DNA of 47,168 bases, from contig CADBFL010000001.1 of the NCBI GenBank assembly GCA_902793875.1, positions 1 to 47,168 on the forward strand, read 5' to 3'. The notes under the pieces were generated by a model. The model was not told the DNA's origin. It did no database searches and worked only from the letters and a program-made list of their open reading frames with translations. The translations under genes were made by a program, and so were the position numbers. Every line of letters starts with the position of its first letter. Position 1 is the first letter of the stretch. Positions 2,143-38,031 of this stretch are shown one piece after another. This DNA comes from an uncultured Eubacteriales bacterium (GTDB lineage Bacteria; Bacillota; Clostridia; Peptostreptococcales; Anaerovoracaceae).

Positions 2143-3195
2143 TTGAGCGAGCACATAATCAGTCTTCAGGGAGTGACCAAGGAATTCGATACCAAAGGGG
2201 GCAAAGTGGTCGCGCTGAAGGACATAGACCTGAATATCGAAAAAGGGGATTCGTACGGGATCATCGGGCTCTCCGGAGCCGGCAAGTCCACTCTCGTAAG
2301 GACGATCAATCTGCTTGAGGAGCCGACCGAAGGAAAGGTCCTCTTCGACGGGAAGCTGCTCACAGGGCTTTCGGCGAAGGAGCTCAACCTCGAGAGGCGG
2401 AGGATCTCGATGATATTCCAGCAGTTCAACCTGCTGATGCAGAGGGACGCGGTCGGCAACATCTGCTTCCCTCTGGAGATCGCCGGAGTGCCGAAGGCCG
2501 AGGCTGCCGAAAAGGCACGGGAGCTTCTGAAGGTAGTCGACCTCGAGGAGAGAGCGAATTCATATCCGTCGCAGCTCTCGGGAGGACAGAAGCAGAGAGT
2601 GGCCATCGCAAGGGCGCTGGCATCGGACCCCGAAGTCATACTCTGCGACGAGGCCACATCGGCCCTGGATCCGAAGACCACAAGATCGATACTGGCGCTT
2701 CTGAGAAAGATCAACGAGGAGCGCGGCATAACCCTGGTGGTCATCACGCACGAGATGGAGGTCATCAAGCAGCTCTGCAACAAGGTGGCGGTCATAGAGA
2801 ACGGCGAGATAGTCGAAAGAGGAGATGTCCAGGAGATGTTCAGAAAGCCTAAGACCAAGGCCGCCAGAAAGCTCTTCTTCCCGGACGGACAGGTCACGGA
2901 GAAGCCTCTTGTGAGGACATCGACAAAGAACAGGGTGAGGCTTGTATACGATGAATCCACCGCGGGCGAGCCTATAATCGCCAACATGATCATGGAACTC
3001 GGGGCGCCGGTGAACTTCCTCTACGCCAACCTCGACGTTCTCGGAGGAGCCCAGAAGGGACAGATGGTCATATGCCTGGCAGAAGACGCGGCGACTGCCG
3101 CGAAGCAGAAGGAATACCTCAGGGCGAAGGGAGTGGACTTCACTGAGATAGAGGAAGATGAGATCGACCACCACGGAGAGGAGGGTGATGCGTAA
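2143..3195 (+). CDS. metN: Methionine ABC transporter ATP-binding protein
   Basis: 350 aa, TTG start 6 nt after GGAAAGGGA. It has Walker A GLSGAGKST, the signature LSGGQKQR and a C-terminal NIL/ACT-like domain typical of MetN. Confidence 0.9.
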   Translation: MSEHIISLQGVTKEFDTKGGKVVALKDIDLNIEKGDSYGIIGLSGAGKSTLVRTINLLEEPTEGKVLFDGKLLTGLSAKELNLERRRISMIFQQFNLLMQRDAVGNICFPLEIAGVPKAEAAEKARELLKVVDLEERANSYPSQLSGGQKQRVAIARALASDPEVILCDEATSALDPKTTRSILALLRKINEERGITLVVITHEMEVIKQLCNKVAVIENGEIVERGDVQEMFRKPKTKAARKLFFPDGQVTEKPLVRTSTKNRVRLVYDESTAGEPIIANMIMELGAPVNFLYANLDVLGGAQKGQMVICLAEDAATAAKQKEYLRAKGVDFTEIEEDEIDHHGEEGDA

Positions 3196-19421: not shown

Positions 19422-19775
19422 CGGCTTTGGCGGCCCTGAAACAGAAAGCAGCTGCTGCCGGCACCCGCAAACACCCCAGGAGCGCGAGCGGCTTTTCCTT
19501 ATAATTGGAGCAAAACGAACGCGCACCGCTTTTCCCGAGCAGGCTTAAATATTACATAACCGGGGAATTCCCGTTCGCTCTCCTCTAAGCTCACTTGGTC
19601 TGCCGGCCGATCGCGCCGCTCTGTAATGCTTCCTTCCGATCTCACGGCGTTGCCGTAAAGACGGAAGCATTGATCTCCGTCGGCACAGCTCCTCCGATAA
19701 ATGCTGCCGCCCGGGCTATGTGAGGGCCTGGCGACAGCGCTGGCGCTCCCGGGGCAGACAGACAAAAGATCCTAA

Positions 19776-20405
19776 TTGGAGCGAAATGAGCCTCAGCCTC
19801 GAAAATGCACCATATACGGCAGGCCGGCAAAGCTAAAACTGGAGCGAAATGAGCGGCAGCCTCGAAAATGCACCAATTTCAGACTGAGCCAGGCGAGAAA
19901 ATTGGAGCGAAATGAGCGCGCACATCAAAAACGCACCATATACGGCAGGCCGGCAGTGCTAAAACTGGAGCGAAATGAGCGTGCATATCAAAAATGCACC
20001 ATATACGGCAGGCCGGCAGTGCTAAAACTGGAGCGAAATGAGCGCCTGCCCCGAAAATGCACCATATACGGCAGGCCGGCAACTTGAAAACTGGAGCGAA
20101 ATGAGCGGCAGCCTCGAAAATGCACCATATACGGCAGACTGACAAGCTGAAAACTGGAGCGAAATGAGCGCGCACATCAAAAACGCACCAATTCCAGGCT
20201 GATCTTAAAGGGAAAATTGGAACCAAATGAACGCATACGACGAAATGGTTCCAATTCCGGAGCGATCTGCAGGAGGAAATTGGAACCAAATGGCCGCGCA
20301 TGCCGAAATGGTTCCAATTCCGGAGTGATCTGCAGGAGGAAATTGGAACCAAATGGCCGCGCATGCCGAAATGGTTCCAATGCCACTCTGATCCGGAAGG
20401 TAAAA
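19776..20405. repeat. Tandem array of ten 63-bp hairpin-containing units (two subfamilies); a degenerate 11th unit follows to about 20468
   Basis: Unit starts are at 19776, 19839, 19902, 19965, 20028, 20091, 20154, 20217, 20280 and 20343, an exact 63-bp period. Units 1-7 read (C/T)TGGAGCGAAATGAGCG-N7-C(A/G)AAAA(T/C)GCACCA plus a 26-nt tail. Units 8-10 read TTGGAACCAAATG(G/A)(C/A)CGC..GAAATGGTTCCAA plus a tail. A solo degenerate copy lies at 19503-19535. Confidence 0.9.
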
Positions 20406-20482
20406 CTGAGGCAAATTGCTGTAAGGCGGCTGACTTTACACAAAACACAGACCGGGAAGGCCTCCTGAAATGAGCAGTCGTC

Positions 20483-20607
20483 AAAAGGTGCGGAAACACT
20501 TCAAGGTATATGAAAGTGCGGAAACACTACAAGATATCTGAATATCTGAGGGTACGGAAATACATCAGGATGCCTGAAGGTGCAAAAACACATTAAGACG
20601 CCGGGGG
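20483..20607 (+). repeat. Four direct repeats (about 28 nt) immediately upstream of the HAD gene
   Basis: The (G/A)GT(G/A)C(G/A)(G/A)AAA(C/T)AC cores start at 20487, 20515, 20551 and 20579, giving spacings of 28, 36 and 28. The 36 spacing contains an 8-nt ATCTGAAT duplication. Confidence 0.65.
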
Positions 20608-20651: not shown

Positions 20652-21299
20652 ATGAAAAAGAAATATATCATCTGGGACTTTGACGGTACCATAGCGTGTA
20701 CCAATGACATAATAATAGAATCCTGGCAGGCGACTTTCCGGCACTATCTTGGGCATGAACTGCCGGTCAGGGAGATAGAGGCGACCTTCGGGGAGACTCT
20801 GATGCATACCATCGCAGAGAAACTGCCCGGGGAGGATCCCGATGAGGTGATGGCCTGCTACAGGGCCTATCAGAATGCCCATTGCGAGGGCAGGGTCTAT
20901 GTGTTCGAAGGAGTGAGGGAGGTCCTGGATGAGCTCAGGACCCGGGGCTGCAGGCTCGGGGTAGCGACATCGAGGACTGCTAAGAGCTTCGGCAAATACA
21001 TGAAGGAGCTGGGCCTCGAAGACAGCATGGATGTCGTCGTCACCATGGAGGATGTCACGAAGCACAAGCCCGATCCCGAGTCGGTCGAAAAGGTGCTCGA
21101 AAAGTTCGGGGCAAAGCCCGAAGAAGCCATCATGATAGGAGATACGAAATACGACATAGCCTGCGCGAACAGGGCGGGAGTCGACAGCGTTCTGGTCGGA
21201 TGGAGCCACTGGGTGGATGAAGACGCGATGGCAGCCGAGGGTATAGAACCGGCGCACCGGATAAAAAGGCCGGAAGAACTGCTCGGCCTGATCGGATAA
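20652..21299 (+). CDS. HAD-superfamily phosphatase (PpaX/phosphoglycolate-phosphatase-like)
   Basis: It starts MKKKYIIWDFDGTIA (DxDGT motif I); motif II is GVATS and motif IV is GDTKYD. I prefer the ATG at 20652 over the track's GTG at 20580, which lies inside the upstream repeats. Confidence 0.8.
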   Translation: MKKKYIIWDFDGTIACTNDIIIESWQATFRHYLGHELPVREIEATFGETLMHTIAEKLPGEDPDEVMACYRAYQNAHCEGRVYVFEGVREVLDELRTRGCRLGVATSRTAKSFGKYMKELGLEDSMDVVVTMEDVTKHKPDPESVEKVLEKFGAKPEEAIMIGDTKYDIACANRAGVDSVLVGWSHWVDEDAMAAEGIEPAHRIKRPEELLGLIG

Positions 21300-21399
21300 A
21301 AAAGGCCGGAGGAGCTGCCCGGCCTGATCGGATAAAAAGGCCGAAGGAACTGCCCGGCCTGATCGGATAAAAAGGCCGGAAGAACTGCTCGGCCTGATC
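21259..21399 (+). repeat. Four tandem 35/36-bp units overlapping the 3' end of the HAD gene
   Basis: GGATAAAAAGGCCGGAAGAACTGCTCGGCCTGATC occurs at 21259, 21294, 21330 and 21365, and units 1 and 4 are identical. Each unit holds the hairpin AGGCCG-N11-CGGCCT. Unit 1 encodes the last 13 codons, and the stop is the GGATAA at the start of unit 2. Confidence 0.85.
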
Positions 21400-21505
21400 G
21401 GGTGAACGTGATCGAAAAACTGTTACCGAGTGATCATGATCATATTGCAAAGCAGGAACGCAGCTGAGGATGCGCGCGTGTCTGCAGGAATCAAAAGGAG
21501 ACAAA

Positions 21506-22631
21506 ATGCTGCAGCTAGAAGAAATAAGAAGCCAGCTTCCGGCTCTCATGGAGCAGATAGAGGAAGTGGGAGGTTATCTTTGACCCGGCGGGTCTTGAGA
21601 AACGCATAAAAGAGCTCGAGGACGAGAGCCTGAAGGACGGATTCTGGAACGACCAGAAGAAGGCGCAGAAGGTGCTGAAAGAAAAGAAATCTCTCGAAGG
21701 CAGACTTGCCGAATACGAGAAGCTTTCTTCTGATGCCGCCGAACTTCCGGATCTCATAGAGATAGCGGAGGAACTCGATGACGAGGACGAGGCGAAGAGC
21801 GTGGTCGCGACATTCGATGAACTTGCCGAGGAGCTCGAGGACCTGAAGACCAGGATGCTGCTGTCCGGAAAATACGACAGCAGGGACTGTATACTGAGCA
21901 TACACTCGGGCACGGGCGGAGTCGACGCGAACGACTGGGCCGAGATGCTCGAGAGGATGTACCTCAGATACTGCGAGAAGAAGGGCTTCAAAACGAAGCT
22001 GCTCGACAGGCAGGATGACGTCGACTACGGCATCAAGAGCTCGACCATACAGGTAGAGGGCGACAACGCATACGGACTTCTGAAGTCCGAGACGGGAGTC
22101 CACAGACTGGTCAGGATATCCCCGTTCAACGCGATGGGAAAGCGCCAGACATCGTTCGCGGCGGTCGAGGTCGTGCCGGATATAGGTGATGATATCGAAG
22201 TCAACATAGATCCGGGTGATCTCAAGATCGACACGTACAGATCGGGCGGCGCGGGCGGCCAGCACGTCAACACGACGGATTCGGCTGTCAGGATCACCCA
22301 CCTTCCGACCGGCATAGTCGTGACCTGTCAGAACGAGAGGTCGCAGATCATGAACCGCGAGGTGGCGATGAAGATCCTTGTGTCCAAGCTGACGAAGATC
22401 GCCGAAGAGGCCCACAAGGAGAACCTCAACGAGATAAAGGGCGACCAGTCGATGGCGACCTGGGGCTCGCAGATAAGAAACTACGTATTCCAGCCCTACA
22501 CCATGGTCAAGGACACGAGGACCGGCGCCGAGGTCGGAAACGTCGATGCGGTGATGGACGGCGACATCGATGTGTTCGTGAGGGCCAAGCTCTCGCAGGA
22601 CGCGGCTCAGAGCGGGAAACCGGCGGAATAG
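21506..22631 (+). CDS. prfB: Peptide chain release factor 2, requires programmed +1 frameshift: join(21506..21580, 21582..22631)
   Basis: Frame 0 reads MLQLEEIRSQLPALMEQIEEVGGYL and then hits TGA at 21581-21583. The +1 frame continues DPAGLEKRIKELEDE... into the track ORF 21672..22631. The SPF tripeptide (RISPFNA) and GGQ (GGAGGQHVN) are present. Confidence 0.9.
21568..21584 (+). other. prfB recoding site (internal SD + CTT TGA C slippery/stop context)
   Basis: GGGAGG-TTAT-CTT-TGA-C. It has the same CUU UGA C shift site and upstream SD-like element as the E. coli and B. subtilis prfB frameshift sites. Confidence 0.85.
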
Positions 22632-22708
22632 AAAAGAACAGGAAGGACTGCAGGATAGAAAAGAACAGGAAGGACTGCAGAATGGAAAAGCGCAGGATAA
22701 ATAAAGTC
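22628..22708 (+). repeat. 27-bp tandem triplication spanning the prfB stop and the lipoprotein RBS/start
   Basis: ATAGAAAAGAACAGGAAGGACTGCAG(G/A) occurs at 22628 and 22655. A third, diverged copy starts ATGGAAAAGCGCAGGATAA at 22682, which is the start codon of the next gene. Confidence 0.65.
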
Positions 22709-35493: not shown

Positions 35494-35931
35494 ATGAATC
35501 TTGCACTTATAGGTATGGCTGCGGCCCTTGGTTTATCTGCTGCCGGTTCGGCGTTCGGCGCCGGATTTGCCGGTATGTCTGCAGTAGGAGCATGGAAGAA
35601 ATGTTATGCCAGCGGCAAGCCTGCTCCGTTCATCATGATCGCTTTCACCGGCGCGCCTCTTACACAGACCATTTACGGTTTCCTGCTGATGAACTTCATC
35701 AACGGCAGCGCTGCCAACAATCCGGGACTCGCTCTCGGCGTAGGCCTCTTCGGAGGATTCGCGATCGGAATGTCCGCCCTCTTCCAGGGCAAGTGCGCGG
35801 CGGCATCCGCTGACGCTCTCGGCGCAACAGGAAAAGGTACCGCGAACTACTTCATCGTAATCGGTATCGTAGAGACAGTAGCTCTGTTCACACTCGTATT
35901 CGGACTGCTGCTCCTCAACAGCGCCGCATAG
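35494..35931 (+). CDS. ntpK: V-type ATPase proteolipid subunit K
   Basis: 145-aa, 4-helix proteolipid with T57-Q58, Q98 and the carboxylate E127 (IVETVALF). Confidence 0.9.
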   Translation: MNLALIGMAAALGLSAAGSAFGAGFAGMSAVGAWKKCYASGKPAPFIMIAFTGAPLTQTIYGFLLMNFINGSAANNPGLALGVGLFGGFAIGMSALFQGKCAAASADALGATGKGTANYFIVIGIVETVALFTLVFGLLLLNSAA

Positions 35932-36040
35932 TTAATCACACCTAACGGGGCCTGACCCCGTTAAAGACAACTAACGGACAACTAACGGGGCCTGACTGCC
36001 CCCGTTAGATCATTGCAGAACTGCACAAAGCAAGTTTGAT

Positions 36041-36076
36041 GGAGGGACGGCGAACAGCCGCCCCTCCGTTTTATTT
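36041..36076 (+). terminator. Intrinsic terminator of the V-ATPase operon
   Basis: GGAGGGACGGC-GAACA-GCCGCCCCTCC, with one unpaired base in the stem, followed by GTTTTATTT. Confidence 0.7.
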
Positions 36077-36301
36077 GTGTATCAGATGCCGTATGCCGCC
36101 CGGCCATACACAAAATTACCCTCATGAGGCGGTGCATGAGCTCACGAACGTTCTGTTTTGTGTATGGCCGGTACATATTCTCAAAACGATACACATGATT
36201 GCGCGAAAAGCTGTGTATCGTTTTTCGAAATCGATATACCCATACACAAATCGGCCGATCTGAGGTCTTTTCTCAGGGCCGGGGCCGTCAAAAATGTGTA
36301 T
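36076..36301. repeat. Block 1: seven TGTGTAT/ATACACA cores in alternating orientation forming nested inverted repeats
   Basis: Cores are at 36076(+), 36106(-), 36159(+), 36189(-), 36212(+), 36242(-) and 36295(+). The extended inverted repeats are TTTGTGTAT/ATACACAAA (36074-36114), TTTGTGTATGG/CCATACACAAA (36157-36250, outer) and the perfect 13-bp AAAACGATACACA/TGTGTATCGTTTT (36183-36224, inner). Confidence 0.85.
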
Positions 36302-36323
36302 GAAAAGCAAAGAACTGACGATC

Positions 36324-36550
36324 ATTACACCAAACATGACTCCGGCAAGGATTATTGCAGCGGCTAAGCGCTGTCCGGGTGTAAATCTCGTATGCGCTTG
36401 ATTAGAATTACACCGTTTTCACCGAATACGGTGTAATCCTGCATCCGTGGCCGCCTGGATTACACCCGGATGTATATAAACCCGCCATTATAGCGGGCAT
36501 GATCGCAGGAACGGTGTAATATGGAAAGGCACGGGGATGATTTTACACCC
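36324..36550. repeat. Block 2: seven TTACACC/GGTGTAA cores in alternating orientation
   Basis: Cores are at 36324(+), 36378(-), 36407(+), 36429(-), 36459(+), 36512(-) and 36543(+). The best pair is ATTACACCG-N13-CGGTGTAAT (36407-36437). Confidence 0.85.
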
Positions 36551-36574
36551 GAATAAGCACACAGGCGCTTATCC

Positions 36575-36745
36575 GGACTGTACAGGCTGAAAACGAAGCA
36601 TGGCCCCCCCTGGACTGTACAGGCTGAAAACGAAGCATGGCCCCCTGGGCTGTACAGTCTGAAAACGAAGCATGGCCCCTCCGAATCGTTTAGTCTGAAT
36701 GCGAATTATGGCTTCTCCTGACTGTACAGTCTGAACCTGTACCAT
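36575..36745. repeat. Block 3: tandem 35-37-bp repeats carrying the palindrome CTGTACAG
   Basis: GG(A/G)CTGTACAG(G/T)CTGAAAACGAAGCATGGCCCC starts at 36575, 36612 and 36647. A degenerate fourth copy lies at about 36683, and a partial fifth copy (GACTGTACAGTCTGAACCTGTACC) at 36719. Confidence 0.85.
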
Positions 36746-36750
36746 AGTAT

Positions 36751-36794
36751 ATAAAAAACCGGCAGCGTTCCGATACGGTACAGTGCTGCCGGTT
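36751..36794 (-). terminator. Intrinsic terminator of the minus-strand orphan gene
   Basis: A perfect 10-bp stem AACCGGCAGC/GCTGCCGGTT (36757-36766 and 36785-36794). On the minus strand it is followed by TTTTTTAT. Confidence 0.7.
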
Positions 36795-36846
36795 GTAATC
36801 ATATTATGATCTCTGTCGATTTGTTATCATTCGCCAATTATTGCTG

Positions 36847-37857
36847 TTATTTGTCCCATGGGACCTGATCGCGGTAGCTTCCGAAAGGAGTCACCGGCAG
36901 GTATACGTTCATGAGGAAGTTGCGGTCCTCGAGGTGCTTTTCATCGAGGCTCAGCTTTATGCAGACAGCCCAGCCGCCGTCAAACGTGAACTGGATCGTG
37001 TCTCTTGAGATCTCGCCGTATTTGCCTGTCGCCATCCTTACATCCAGTAGATCGGTAGGGAACCTGACAGGCTGGACGGTGTGGTTGGAGTTGTTCGGCA
37101 TGCAGCCGAGGCCCGCGTGGGAGTTGACGCAGCCTATGCGTGTGACCTCAAGCTCAGGTATAGGCTTGATGAAATAGTAGTCGTATTTGCCGTAGAAGAA
37201 ATCGAGCATTCTCTGCGGGGCTTCCGGATGGTACTTGCAGATGCGCGGGAGCTCGTTGCCTATCGCCTTGAGCATAGGACCGATGAGCTTGCCGTAGAGG
37301 AATTCTTCCTCGCGAAGAAGCTCGTGCCATGTTTCCGTGTCATACGGCTCAAAGGACTGAAGGATCTCGTTCATGTCCATAAAGTACTCATTGGAGCACG
37401 GCACGCGGAAGATCCTTTCGCCGAAGTCGTCGATCTCGTTGAACCTGCTCACGAAGTTGTCGTCGCGCATGTTAGGACTGCGGTCGGCAACCTTCATCGA
37501 TGAGAGCACGTTGGCGTCGCTCTTGACTGAGATCGATATGTGCCAGTCGAATTCAGGCCGCTCGATGAGCAGCTCGCCGAAAGAGTCTTCTTCGAGCTCC
37601 CTTACGAGGTAGTTGAAGCGGATCCTGAGAGGCTCTCCTCCCTTGAGGAAGACATACGGCTCTTTGGAAGTGATGCGCCTCATGGCAGGCCTTGCCTGTC
37701 TGTCGGCGAGCTTTTTGTCCGCGCCCGGAGCCTTGTCCCAGACCTTGAGAAAATACTGGTATTCTTCGTCATCCCTGAATTCATACGGGACATCTCTGTC
37801 CTGCAGGATGCTCTCGAGTGACCATGCCGTGGCTGCTACGAGAAGTTCGTTTATCAT
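36847..37857 (-). CDS. Hypothetical cytoplasmic protein, 336 aa, no family recognised
   Basis: I prefer the ATG at 37857 (MINELLVAATAW...), 7 nt after GGAGGA. The track's start at 38004 adds 49 residues with no RBS. There is no signal peptide or TM helix. It is the only substantial minus-strand gene besides gpsA. Confidence 0.7.
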   Translation of the reverse strand: MINELLVAATAWSLESILQDRDVPYEFRDDEEYQYFLKVWDKAPGADKKLADRQARPAMRRITSKEPYVFLKGGEPLRIRFNYLVRELEEDSFGELLIERPEFDWHISISVKSDANVLSSMKVADRSPNMRDDNFVSRFNEIDDFGERIFRVPCSNEYFMDMNEILQSFEPYDTETWHELLREEEFLYGKLIGPMLKAIGNELPRICKYHPEAPQRMLDFFYGKYDYYFIKPIPELEVTRIGCVNSHAGLGCMPNNSNHTVQPVRFPTDLLDVRMATGKYGEISRDTIQFTFDGGWAVCIKLSLDEKHLEDRNFLMNVYLPVTPFGSYRDQVPWDK

Positions 37858-38031
37858 AATGAAGTCCTCCGTACATATATCAGATAAGGAAATCTCATGC
37901 TGTTTAAGAGCGGCAGCGCCGCTACAGTTTATTATAAACCACGAGCGATAAAAAAACATCAAAGAGCGGATATTTTTTAGCGGCCTTGTGCTAAAATTAA
38001 ACATGGATCTCAGTTTCAGAGAGGACGGATA

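Follow-up and report, generated by a model that had tools for sequence, protein, structure and literature searches.

The 47,168-nucleotide stretch of DNA analysed here (the window; contig CADBFL010000001.1 of an uncultured Eubacteriales bacterium from the Anaerovoracaceae) contains, in the spacer between a V/A-type ATPase operon and a gene with a HaeIII-like restriction endonuclease domain, an array of short inverted words with a common GTGTA core. The array belongs to a dispersed family of intergenic repeats. Copies of this family keep their core words, their lengths and their helical phase while the interiors between the cores drift to background identity, which points to a constraint on the geometry of the DNA. 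We regard it as roughly an even bet (probability about 0.5) that the elements are shape-encoded DNA that is wrapped by a protein, perhaps as sites for gyrase or for a nucleoid protein. Judging from Rfam, BLAST and a limited search of the literature, this short repeat family is apparently undescribed.

One series of fourteen sites in the window

The original prediction, made from the letters of the window, divided the spacer into three consecutive blocks, the first two with seven cores each on alternating strands. These counts are reproduced. TGTGTAT/ATACACA occurs at 36076(+), 36106(-), 36159(+), 36189(-), 36212(+), 36242(-) and 36295(+), with three more copies elsewhere in the 47-kb window. 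TTACACC/GGTGTAA occurs in strict alternation at 36325, 36378, 36408, 36430, 36460, 36513 and 36543, and nowhere else in the window. The predicted 13-bp perfect inverted repeat (I3, 36183-36195 / 36212-36224) is indeed enclosed by an 11-bp inverted repeat (I7, 36157-36167 / 36240-36250), and the copy number is beyond chance as claimed, since the two-unit pattern was matched in none of 100 shuffles of the window. The division into two separate blocks does not hold, because ATACACA and TTACACC occupy equivalent positions in a single series of 14 sites.

The 14 sites make up seven 35-bp units (P) with the structure GTGTAW-N23-WTACAC, which are separated by either a long linker (L) of 46-48 bp or a short linker (s) of 16-18 bp. 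The resulting centre-to-centre gaps between cores are 30, 53, 30, 23, 30, 53, 30, 53, 30, 22, 30, 53 and 30 bp. The interiors of the P units in the window are mutually unrelated. An nhmmer profile built from 82 copies of the family has its sole match in the window at 36065-36559, and within it two elements can be delimited (neither is assigned to a strand):

36077..36330: element 1, T-type TTTGTGTAT/ATACACAAA (block 1), from core positions and the family profile match; P1 36077-36111, L 36112-36159, P2 36160-36194, s (hairpin linker) 36195-36212, P3 36213-36247, L 36248-36295, P4 36296-36330
36296..36548: element 2, G-type CGGTGTAA/TTACACCG (block 2), from strain comparison; hybrid P4/5 36296-36330, L 36331-36378, P5 36379-36413, s 36414-36430, P6 36431-36465, L 36466-36513, P7 36514-36548

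The elements overlap in one unit. The 3' core of P4 is of the G-type, which makes P4 a hybrid. For strain comparison, we used contigs from rumen metagenomes that encode an identical ATPase K subunit. Two of these (L002 and L007) carry eight P units, with P4 and P5 separate and 36 bp apart, and in the contig L073 the distance between P4 and P5 is ~480 bp and is filled by other repeats. The fourth unit of the window combines units 4 and 5 of L002 and L007, and is thus a deletion product. Comparison with the family and the strains thus identifies 36077-36548 as two adjacent family copies, one T-type and one G-type, that were fused by this deletion.

A dispersed family with conserved cores and lengths

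A pattern scan that covered each species by a single genome and looked for pairs of P units 18-48 bp apart returned 59 loci, compared with a chance expectation of ~1 calculated from base frequencies. Of these, 51 are found in 11 rumen or gut metagenome-assembled genomes (MAGs) labelled Mogibacterium sp., Anaerovoracaceae, Clostridiales or Bacillota, and a single MAG has up to 13 of them. The spacing of 82-83 / 51-53 bp is common to all 51. Another part of the window shows synteny with one of the 11 MAGs, at 76% identity, which places the window in this lineage (Peptostreptococcales). The eight remaining matches, from unrelated phyla, are tandem repeats of other periods and are best explained by chance. 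The original prediction held that copies elsewhere would speak for a dispersed repeat, and a single conserved locus for an RNA; the 51 loci place the array in a dispersed family. No related sequence was found in viral, plasmid and phage collections.

The basic module of the family is P-L-P, 116-118 bp long (GTGTAW-N23-WTACAC, N46-48, GTGTAW-N23-WTACAC). We analysed 82 strict copies, chosen by perfect cores but with unselected interiors, and read the related loci as 8-kb flanks. Modules occur singly (120 bp), with an extra unit (172 bp), as s-joined pairs (~254 bp, the commonest form) and in longer arrays. Pairs are usually joined by a 17-18-bp A/T hairpin linker, so that the module period is ~135 bp, or 13 helical turns. 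All copies are intergenic, 9 of them in convergent, 18 in tandem and 5 in divergent settings. In ~400 kb of flanks there is no recurrent neighbour gene or transposase, and the neighbours that were checked are housekeeping genes.

There are two main subtypes, the T-type and the G-type already seen in the window. They are distinguished by the base just outside the core, which agrees across the four sites of each module (T/A/T/A in 36 modules, G/C/G/C in 29). Other variants of the core-flanking base are partly genome-specific, and the two bases that flank the cores are partly conserved. The ends of the family resemble inverted repeats (...ATTTGTGTAW / WTACACAAAT...).

Interiors of different copies have a median identity of 29%. 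Nevertheless, the copies form a family by descent, because certain subfamilies are 70-85% identical across the whole 254 bp between different genomes. The family decays by deletions and expands occasionally by direct duplication of the 135-bp period. Recent duplications of this kind, with halves that are 70-84% identical, are seen in L016, L023 and L063. In the orthologous pair L031/L032, the array is ~93% conserved, compared with 86.5% over the wider 1.2-kb region and an upstream flank that aligns poorly. In the orthologous pairs L016/L038 and L026/L040, the interiors can no longer be aligned, while cores and lengths are retained.

Two arrays with other layouts came to light. L051 carries at 2450-3000 a variant array of P-s-P tandem units with a 93-bp period and a long linker of only 6 bp. 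The whole array lies between copies of a 49-bp direct repeat, each a terminator-like hairpin. In L050, from a Flavobacterium MAG, a 77-bp tandem array at 460-1150 has the 17-bp palindrome TTACAC-TAAAA-GTGTAA every ~38 bp. This array has the appearance of operator sites and is unrelated, sharing the core word with the family but not the architecture.

Base composition follows the helical repeat

When the 82 modules are aligned, their A/T content oscillates with a period of 10.5 bp. The amplitude at this period is 10.2, compared with less than 5.8 at other periods, and none of 2000 column permutations matched the peak. It persists when the cores and 5 bp on either side are masked (0 of 5000), and is seen separately in the T-type and the G-type. 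Individual copies agree in the phase of the rhythm (R=0.89, Rayleigh p~1e-28), and this agreement remains over 48 clusters with less than 45% interior identity (R=0.905). The A/T maxima are at columns 19.3+10.5k, symmetric about the module centre, and the four cores are centred on A/T minima. In the window, the 14 core centres lie on one helical face, with 10.4 bp per turn (R=0.918; 0 of 20000 random placements). In the raw sequence of the window, the 10.5-bp peak of the array ranks 5th of 467 intervals.

A 10.5-bp periodicity of A/T content is a constraint of duplex DNA, not of RNA. It is typical of DNA that is bent or wrapped on the surface of a protein, with its conserved words turned to one side.

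A proposed shape-encoded site for a wrapping protein

The persistence of cores, lengths and phase beyond recognizable interior identity suggests to us that the modules work mainly through the shape of their DNA. The element would act as a duplex with all cores on one side of the helix, and the A/T-rich patches that recur every 10.5 bp between the cores would pre-shape the DNA for bending or wrapping on a protein surface. The partner protein would read GTGTA in the inward-facing major grooves. A wrapping enzyme or a nucleoid protein is a candidate for this role, and DNA gyrase, with its 130-bp periodic motif and its sites in BIME-2 (BIME, bacterial interspersed mosaic element) of E. coli, is the best-documented precedent. 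Sites at the ends of operons could absorb transcription-driven supercoiling or could organise the nucleoid. Dispersal, the conservation of cores and spacing, the phasing, the A/T rhythm and the turnover between strains are observed; the wrapping, the identity of the protein and its physiological role are inferred.

The E. coli gyrase motif is symmetric, extends over 130 bp, and has arms in which GC% varies with a period of ~10.75 bp (PMC6379681). An excess of gyrase cleavage sites is found in BIME-2 and downstream of operons that are highly transcribed, and BIME-2 elements are strong gyrase sites independent of transcription (PMC6379681). The family resembles this motif, and the strong gyrase site (SGS) of Mu, in symmetry, in a length of ~120-130 bp and in the 10.5-10.75-bp variation of GC or AT content, which for gyrase is read indirectly via bendability (PMC6379681). 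The likeness is one of a symmetric 118-bp module and a 10.5-bp A/T rhythm. There are also differences. Invariant anchor words are absent from the gyrase motif, whose periodic arms flank a cleavage centre without periodicity. In the family, the rhythm runs through the centre and is accompanied by four invariant GTGTA words. Eukaryotic and archaeal nucleosome-positioning sequences are a second parallel, with their ~10-bp phased alternation of A/T and G/C that favours wrapping. In contrast to these, the family has specific anchor motifs, consists of discrete units that move or duplicate, and has no known histone-like partner.

Several observations weigh against wrapping as proposed here. The phase slips by ~1.6 bp across the short linker, so that coherence extends over the 118-bp module but not over the array as a whole. 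The variants in L051, with their long linker cut to 6 bp, are out of phase. The bias of the family towards the 3' ends of genes (9 convergent, 18 tandem and 5 divergent settings) is weak. The concordance of the core-flanking base at all four sites of a module would also fit pairing of the sites in single-stranded DNA. Gyrase normally does not need a specific 5-bp anchor. The periodicity is a constraint on DNA shape that does not point to the protein which imposes it, if there is one.

As the GTGTA words are invariant and gyrase normally works anchor-free, a sequence-specific protein should be considered instead of, or besides, gyrase. The invariant words suggest an anchor protein of this kind, which may act alone or together with a wrapping enzyme. 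More tentatively, and with odds clearly below even, the elements may be self-propagating modules of ~120 bp with a function mainly in their shape, which present 10.5-bp A/T patches and four GTGTA anchors on one face. They would dock an undescribed wrapping protein, or else gyrase plus an anchor protein, and in this way set up fixed landmarks of topology or of the nucleoid at the boundaries of operons in uncultured Clostridia of the rumen, as a bacterial counterpart of positioning sequences.

Possible mobility and strain-level turnover

The alternative that survives best, although we consider it unlikely, is a selfish element. It would either be of the type of REPINs (doublets of repetitive extragenic palindromes, REPs) and their REP-associated tyrosine transposases (RAYTs), or a miniature inverted-repeat transposable element (MITE). 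The cores would be transposase sites, paired as hairpins in single-stranded DNA or arranged as terminal or subterminal inverted repeats, and the arrays would persist because they replicate. Dispersed intergenic copies with partly genome-specific subfamilies speak for such an element, and the concerted switch of the core-adjacent base between T/A/T/A and G/C/G/C argues in the same direction.

Turnover between strains is also in line with mobility. The relevant segment is:

36075..36734, no strand: strain-variable block of 660 bp that contains all three repeat blocks, present or absent between strains

The left edge of this block is the ATPase terminator: the match between the window and the empty-site strain L005 runs to 36074, 36075-36734 is replaced by 10 bp in this strain, and its flanking genes are 94-98% identical to those of the window. 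L006 lacks all sequence between 35976 and 36850; taken together, the flanking genes of L005 and L006 are 88-98% identical. Whole units are gained or lost as well. Between the window (35964-36154) and L002 (4471-4680), the terminator, the first unit and the first long linker cannot be aligned, and the ATPase genes are 94% identical. The retention of the same architecture despite this suggests that one paralogous copy may have replaced another, by ectopic conversion, and that point divergence is not the cause.

In the strain represented by L008/L075 and L073, which is 99% identical on the ATPase side and 98% identical downstream, one core is interrupted by an IS3-family insertion sequence (IS) of 1.75 kb (L075/L008 from 4711 onward; L073 1265-3013). 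The open reading frame (ORF) of this element has HTH_21, rve and rve_2 domains. The insertion has made a 3-bp TAT duplication inside the GTGTAT core at window-equivalent 36216-36218. The ends of the IS, TGAAGTGTACCC and TAAACTGTACCC, are inverted, and the IS end carries GTGTAC. Targeting of the core by this IS was considered, but three other flanks of it end in AAC, not GTGTAT, and the insertion is treated as incidental.

The suggestion in the original prediction that the spacer is REP- or BIME-like stands in part. The elements are dispersed, intergenic units of ~35 bp in alternating orientation, with alternating long and short linkers of fixed length and a variable number of units, and they are often found at the 3' ends of operons. 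All of this is as in BIMEs. Those specific features of REPs and REPINs that could be compared are not found. REP units are GC-rich imperfect palindromes that are conserved throughout, whereas the units of the family are conserved for 6-10 bp at each end and do not form hairpins: the complementarity that extends from the cores into P averages 0.41 bp over 189 units, which is about the random level. The stems that could form are A/T-rich 6-10-mers closing loops of 16-47 nt, unlike the GC-rich hairpins of REPs. The family also differs from BIMEs in its explicit 10.5-bp A/T rhythm and its phasing on one face, and in being found in Clostridia and not in Proteobacteria.

A REPIN is defined as two inverted REPs with a spacer, mobilised by a single-copy RAYT (PMC3337134). 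The family resembles the REPIN/RAYT system in its doublets with a spacer, in the many copies found in each genome, in having subfamilies specific to lineages and in its long persistence (PMC3337134). The arms of REPINs, however, are complementary over their length and form one long hairpin, whereas the two halves of the doublets are not inverted copies of each other (0.35 identical in inverted and 0.41 in direct comparison, 23 doublets). Complementarity beyond the cores is limited to 3-4 nt across the long linker (0.90, 0.73, 0.73, 0.52) and to the short linker, which is a small hairpin, NNN-TTTT-loop-AAAA-NNN; both are points in favour of a selfish element. No RAYT gene was found in a search limited to the 8-kb flanks of the matches.

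MITEs with internal protein-binding sites, such as the Correia elements of Neisseria, are similar in being non-coding and intergenic, in their length of 100-300 bp, in their inverted ends and in insertion polymorphism between strains. They differ in that the family conserves spacing and shape rather than sequence, and has neither a target-site duplication nor a parent IS identified. The IS3-family element in L073 and L008 has different ends, and no other candidate parent was seen. The empty site in L005, the only one of its kind, shows no clean target duplication, and the ~400 kb of flanks contain no recurrent transposase.

Selfish spread alone is insufficient to explain why mostly old copies, with interiors that are only ~29% identical, still have exact lengths and helical phase. 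Moreover, a selfish element is a statement about origin, which does not exclude a function of DNA shape at the level of the host. A transposase, ectopic conversion and duplication are all candidates for the spread of the family, and a selfish origin would be compatible with a role for the host.

Regulators, RNA and other alternatives

A further possibility, to which we give distinctly less weight than to a selfish element, is that the array provides operators or decoys for a dimeric regulator with sequence specificity, such as a GntR/YtrA-like protein with GT...AC half-sites, and would control or titrate the regulation of neighbouring genes. The operator of B. subtilis YtrA is AGTGTA-N13-TACACT. 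Invariant half-sites in inverted pairs on one helical face, and the partial conservation of the two core-flanking bases, would fit such a regulator. However, the copy in the window is located between convergent terminators, with no promoter to control, and the genes next to copies of the family are unrelated housekeeping genes, oriented in all ways. The half-sites of an ordinary dimer operator are spaced nothing like the 30, 23 and 53 bp seen here, and no regulator gene is linked to the arrays. Of the original suggestion of operator-like sites, binding of a protein on one helical face is the part we favour, but such binding would act throughout the genome and not as a local regulator array.

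A structured non-coding RNA (ncRNA) or protein-sponge RNA with many hairpins, transcribed from the spacer, was also among the original suggestions, and we now consider it very improbable. Read-through from the ATPase operon is conceivable, and the array folds much better than shuffled sequences on both strands (z -5.8 and -8.0). These scores are trivial, because inverted cores alone produce pairing. In Rfam, the whole window contains only tRNA at the gathering threshold, and the region 35900-36900 gives only sub-threshold noise at E<=10, so that no covariance model matches the spacer, including those of the large ornate RNAs that the original prediction had named. Mutual information with average product correction over the 82 copies reveals no covarying pairs beyond the four columns that flank the cores; these change in concert, as a mark of the subfamily. 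Many modules have non-complementary bases at W (A/A in 20). Copies have no fixed orientation to transcription, close strains can do without the block, and the 10.5-bp rhythm of composition has no rationale in RNA.

Least credible of all is neutral junk from repeated local duplication or inversion of a short segment, which would account for the recent 135-bp duplications in L016, L023 and L063 and clearly for block 3, but not for the same architecture at 51 unlinked loci in 11 genomes or for the retention of cores, lengths and A/T phase where interiors are at background identity.

Other known systems were compared and rejected. A CRISPR array, with identical direct repeats of 24-48 bp, unique spacers and usually cas genes beside it, is not compatible with conserved words of 6-10 bp that are inverted, with differing interiors, and with ATPase, restriction endonuclease, PGM and sortase genes as neighbours. 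In a cluster of DnaA boxes (consensus TTWTNCACA), positions 1-2 should be TT, which is not the case in the sites CCATACACA and CGATACACA, and the G-type ends in CACC. Integron attC sites, res sites and WalR/LacI-type half-sites do not fit in spacing or flanks.

Block 3 and the setting of the array

The remaining features of the locus are:

36041..36076, plus strand: intrinsic terminator of the V/A-ATPase operon, GGAGGGACGGCGAACAGCCGCCCCTCC then GTTTTATTT, hairpin and T-run
36572..36752, no strand: block 3, tandem 35-37-bp units bearing CTGTACAG, from Tandem Repeats Finder and repeat finding
36751..36794, minus strand: terminator hairpin of the minus-strand gene, AACCGGCAGC...GCTGCCGGTT, T-run on the minus strand
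36847..38004, minus strand: gene with HaeIII-like restriction endonuclease domain (Pfam PF09556 RE_HaeIII, E=2.8e-26), context only

The third block of the original prediction, four to five tandem 35-37-bp repeats with a palindrome, is present as described, with four copies of CTGTACAG within five tandem units at 36575-36752, three of them good and two degenerate. The proposed unity of all three blocks through TGTA is not borne out: block 3 is unrelated to the first two, varies between strains, and derives from the local flank. L002 and L007 have only one degenerate unit, and in L073, with flanking genes 98-99% identical to the window, the copies differ in number and sequence. Tandem repeats elsewhere have no special link to the arrays, and block 3 was rejected as a family member. 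It is a local tandem duplication of flank sequence that lies outside the dispersed family.

Short intergenic tandem repeats seem to be abundant in these genomes. A 1-kb intergenic region at 19527-20579 contains about nine 63-bp tandem units (19777-20381; 63 = 6 x 10.5 bp) and has the strongest 10.5-bp A/T peak of the window. Next to these units, a segment of ~200 bp (19567-19761) is 91% identical to sequence inserted between units 4 and 5 of L073, with partial and weaker matches in L003. Further intergenic tandem repeats are located at 21258-21401 (35 bp x 4.1) and 22626-22697 (27 bp x 2.7).

The array itself lies in an ORF-poor spacer between convergent terminators, as was originally proposed: both hairpins are seen, and overlapping ORFs are all <=77 aa. 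Upstream is the V/A-type ATPase operon, with genes assigned by Pfam. Directly 3' of the ATPase K gene, at 35931-36007, there is a hairpin, TAACGGGGCCTGACCCCGTTA, with partial copies, and its copy number and orientation depend on the strain. It was considered as a dispersed REP and rejected, since among the fetched loci it is found solely after the ATPase K gene. The minus-strand gene downstream had been called an orphan, but its PF09556 RE_HaeIII domain shows that it is not of unknown type. Its immediate neighbours are PGM, sortase and ATPase genes, with no methyltransferase among these, and its called length differs by strain (337, 361 or 385 aa).

Implications

Repeats of the REP/BIME type have been well studied in Proteobacteria but hardly in Clostridia, and their function at the level of the host is debated. 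The family described here separates the variables with unusual clarity: its interiors have drifted to background identity, but length, helical phase and A/T rhythm have been kept. In practical terms, it accounts for a strain-variable hotspot, and warns annotators against calling small ORFs or RNAs in such arrays. Should gyrase, a nucleoid protein or another wrapping partner be confirmed, the family would be a natural, sequence-minimal model for the placement of topological landmarks in bacteria. It would then also offer a way to study how the chromosome is organised in this uncultured lineage of the rumen.

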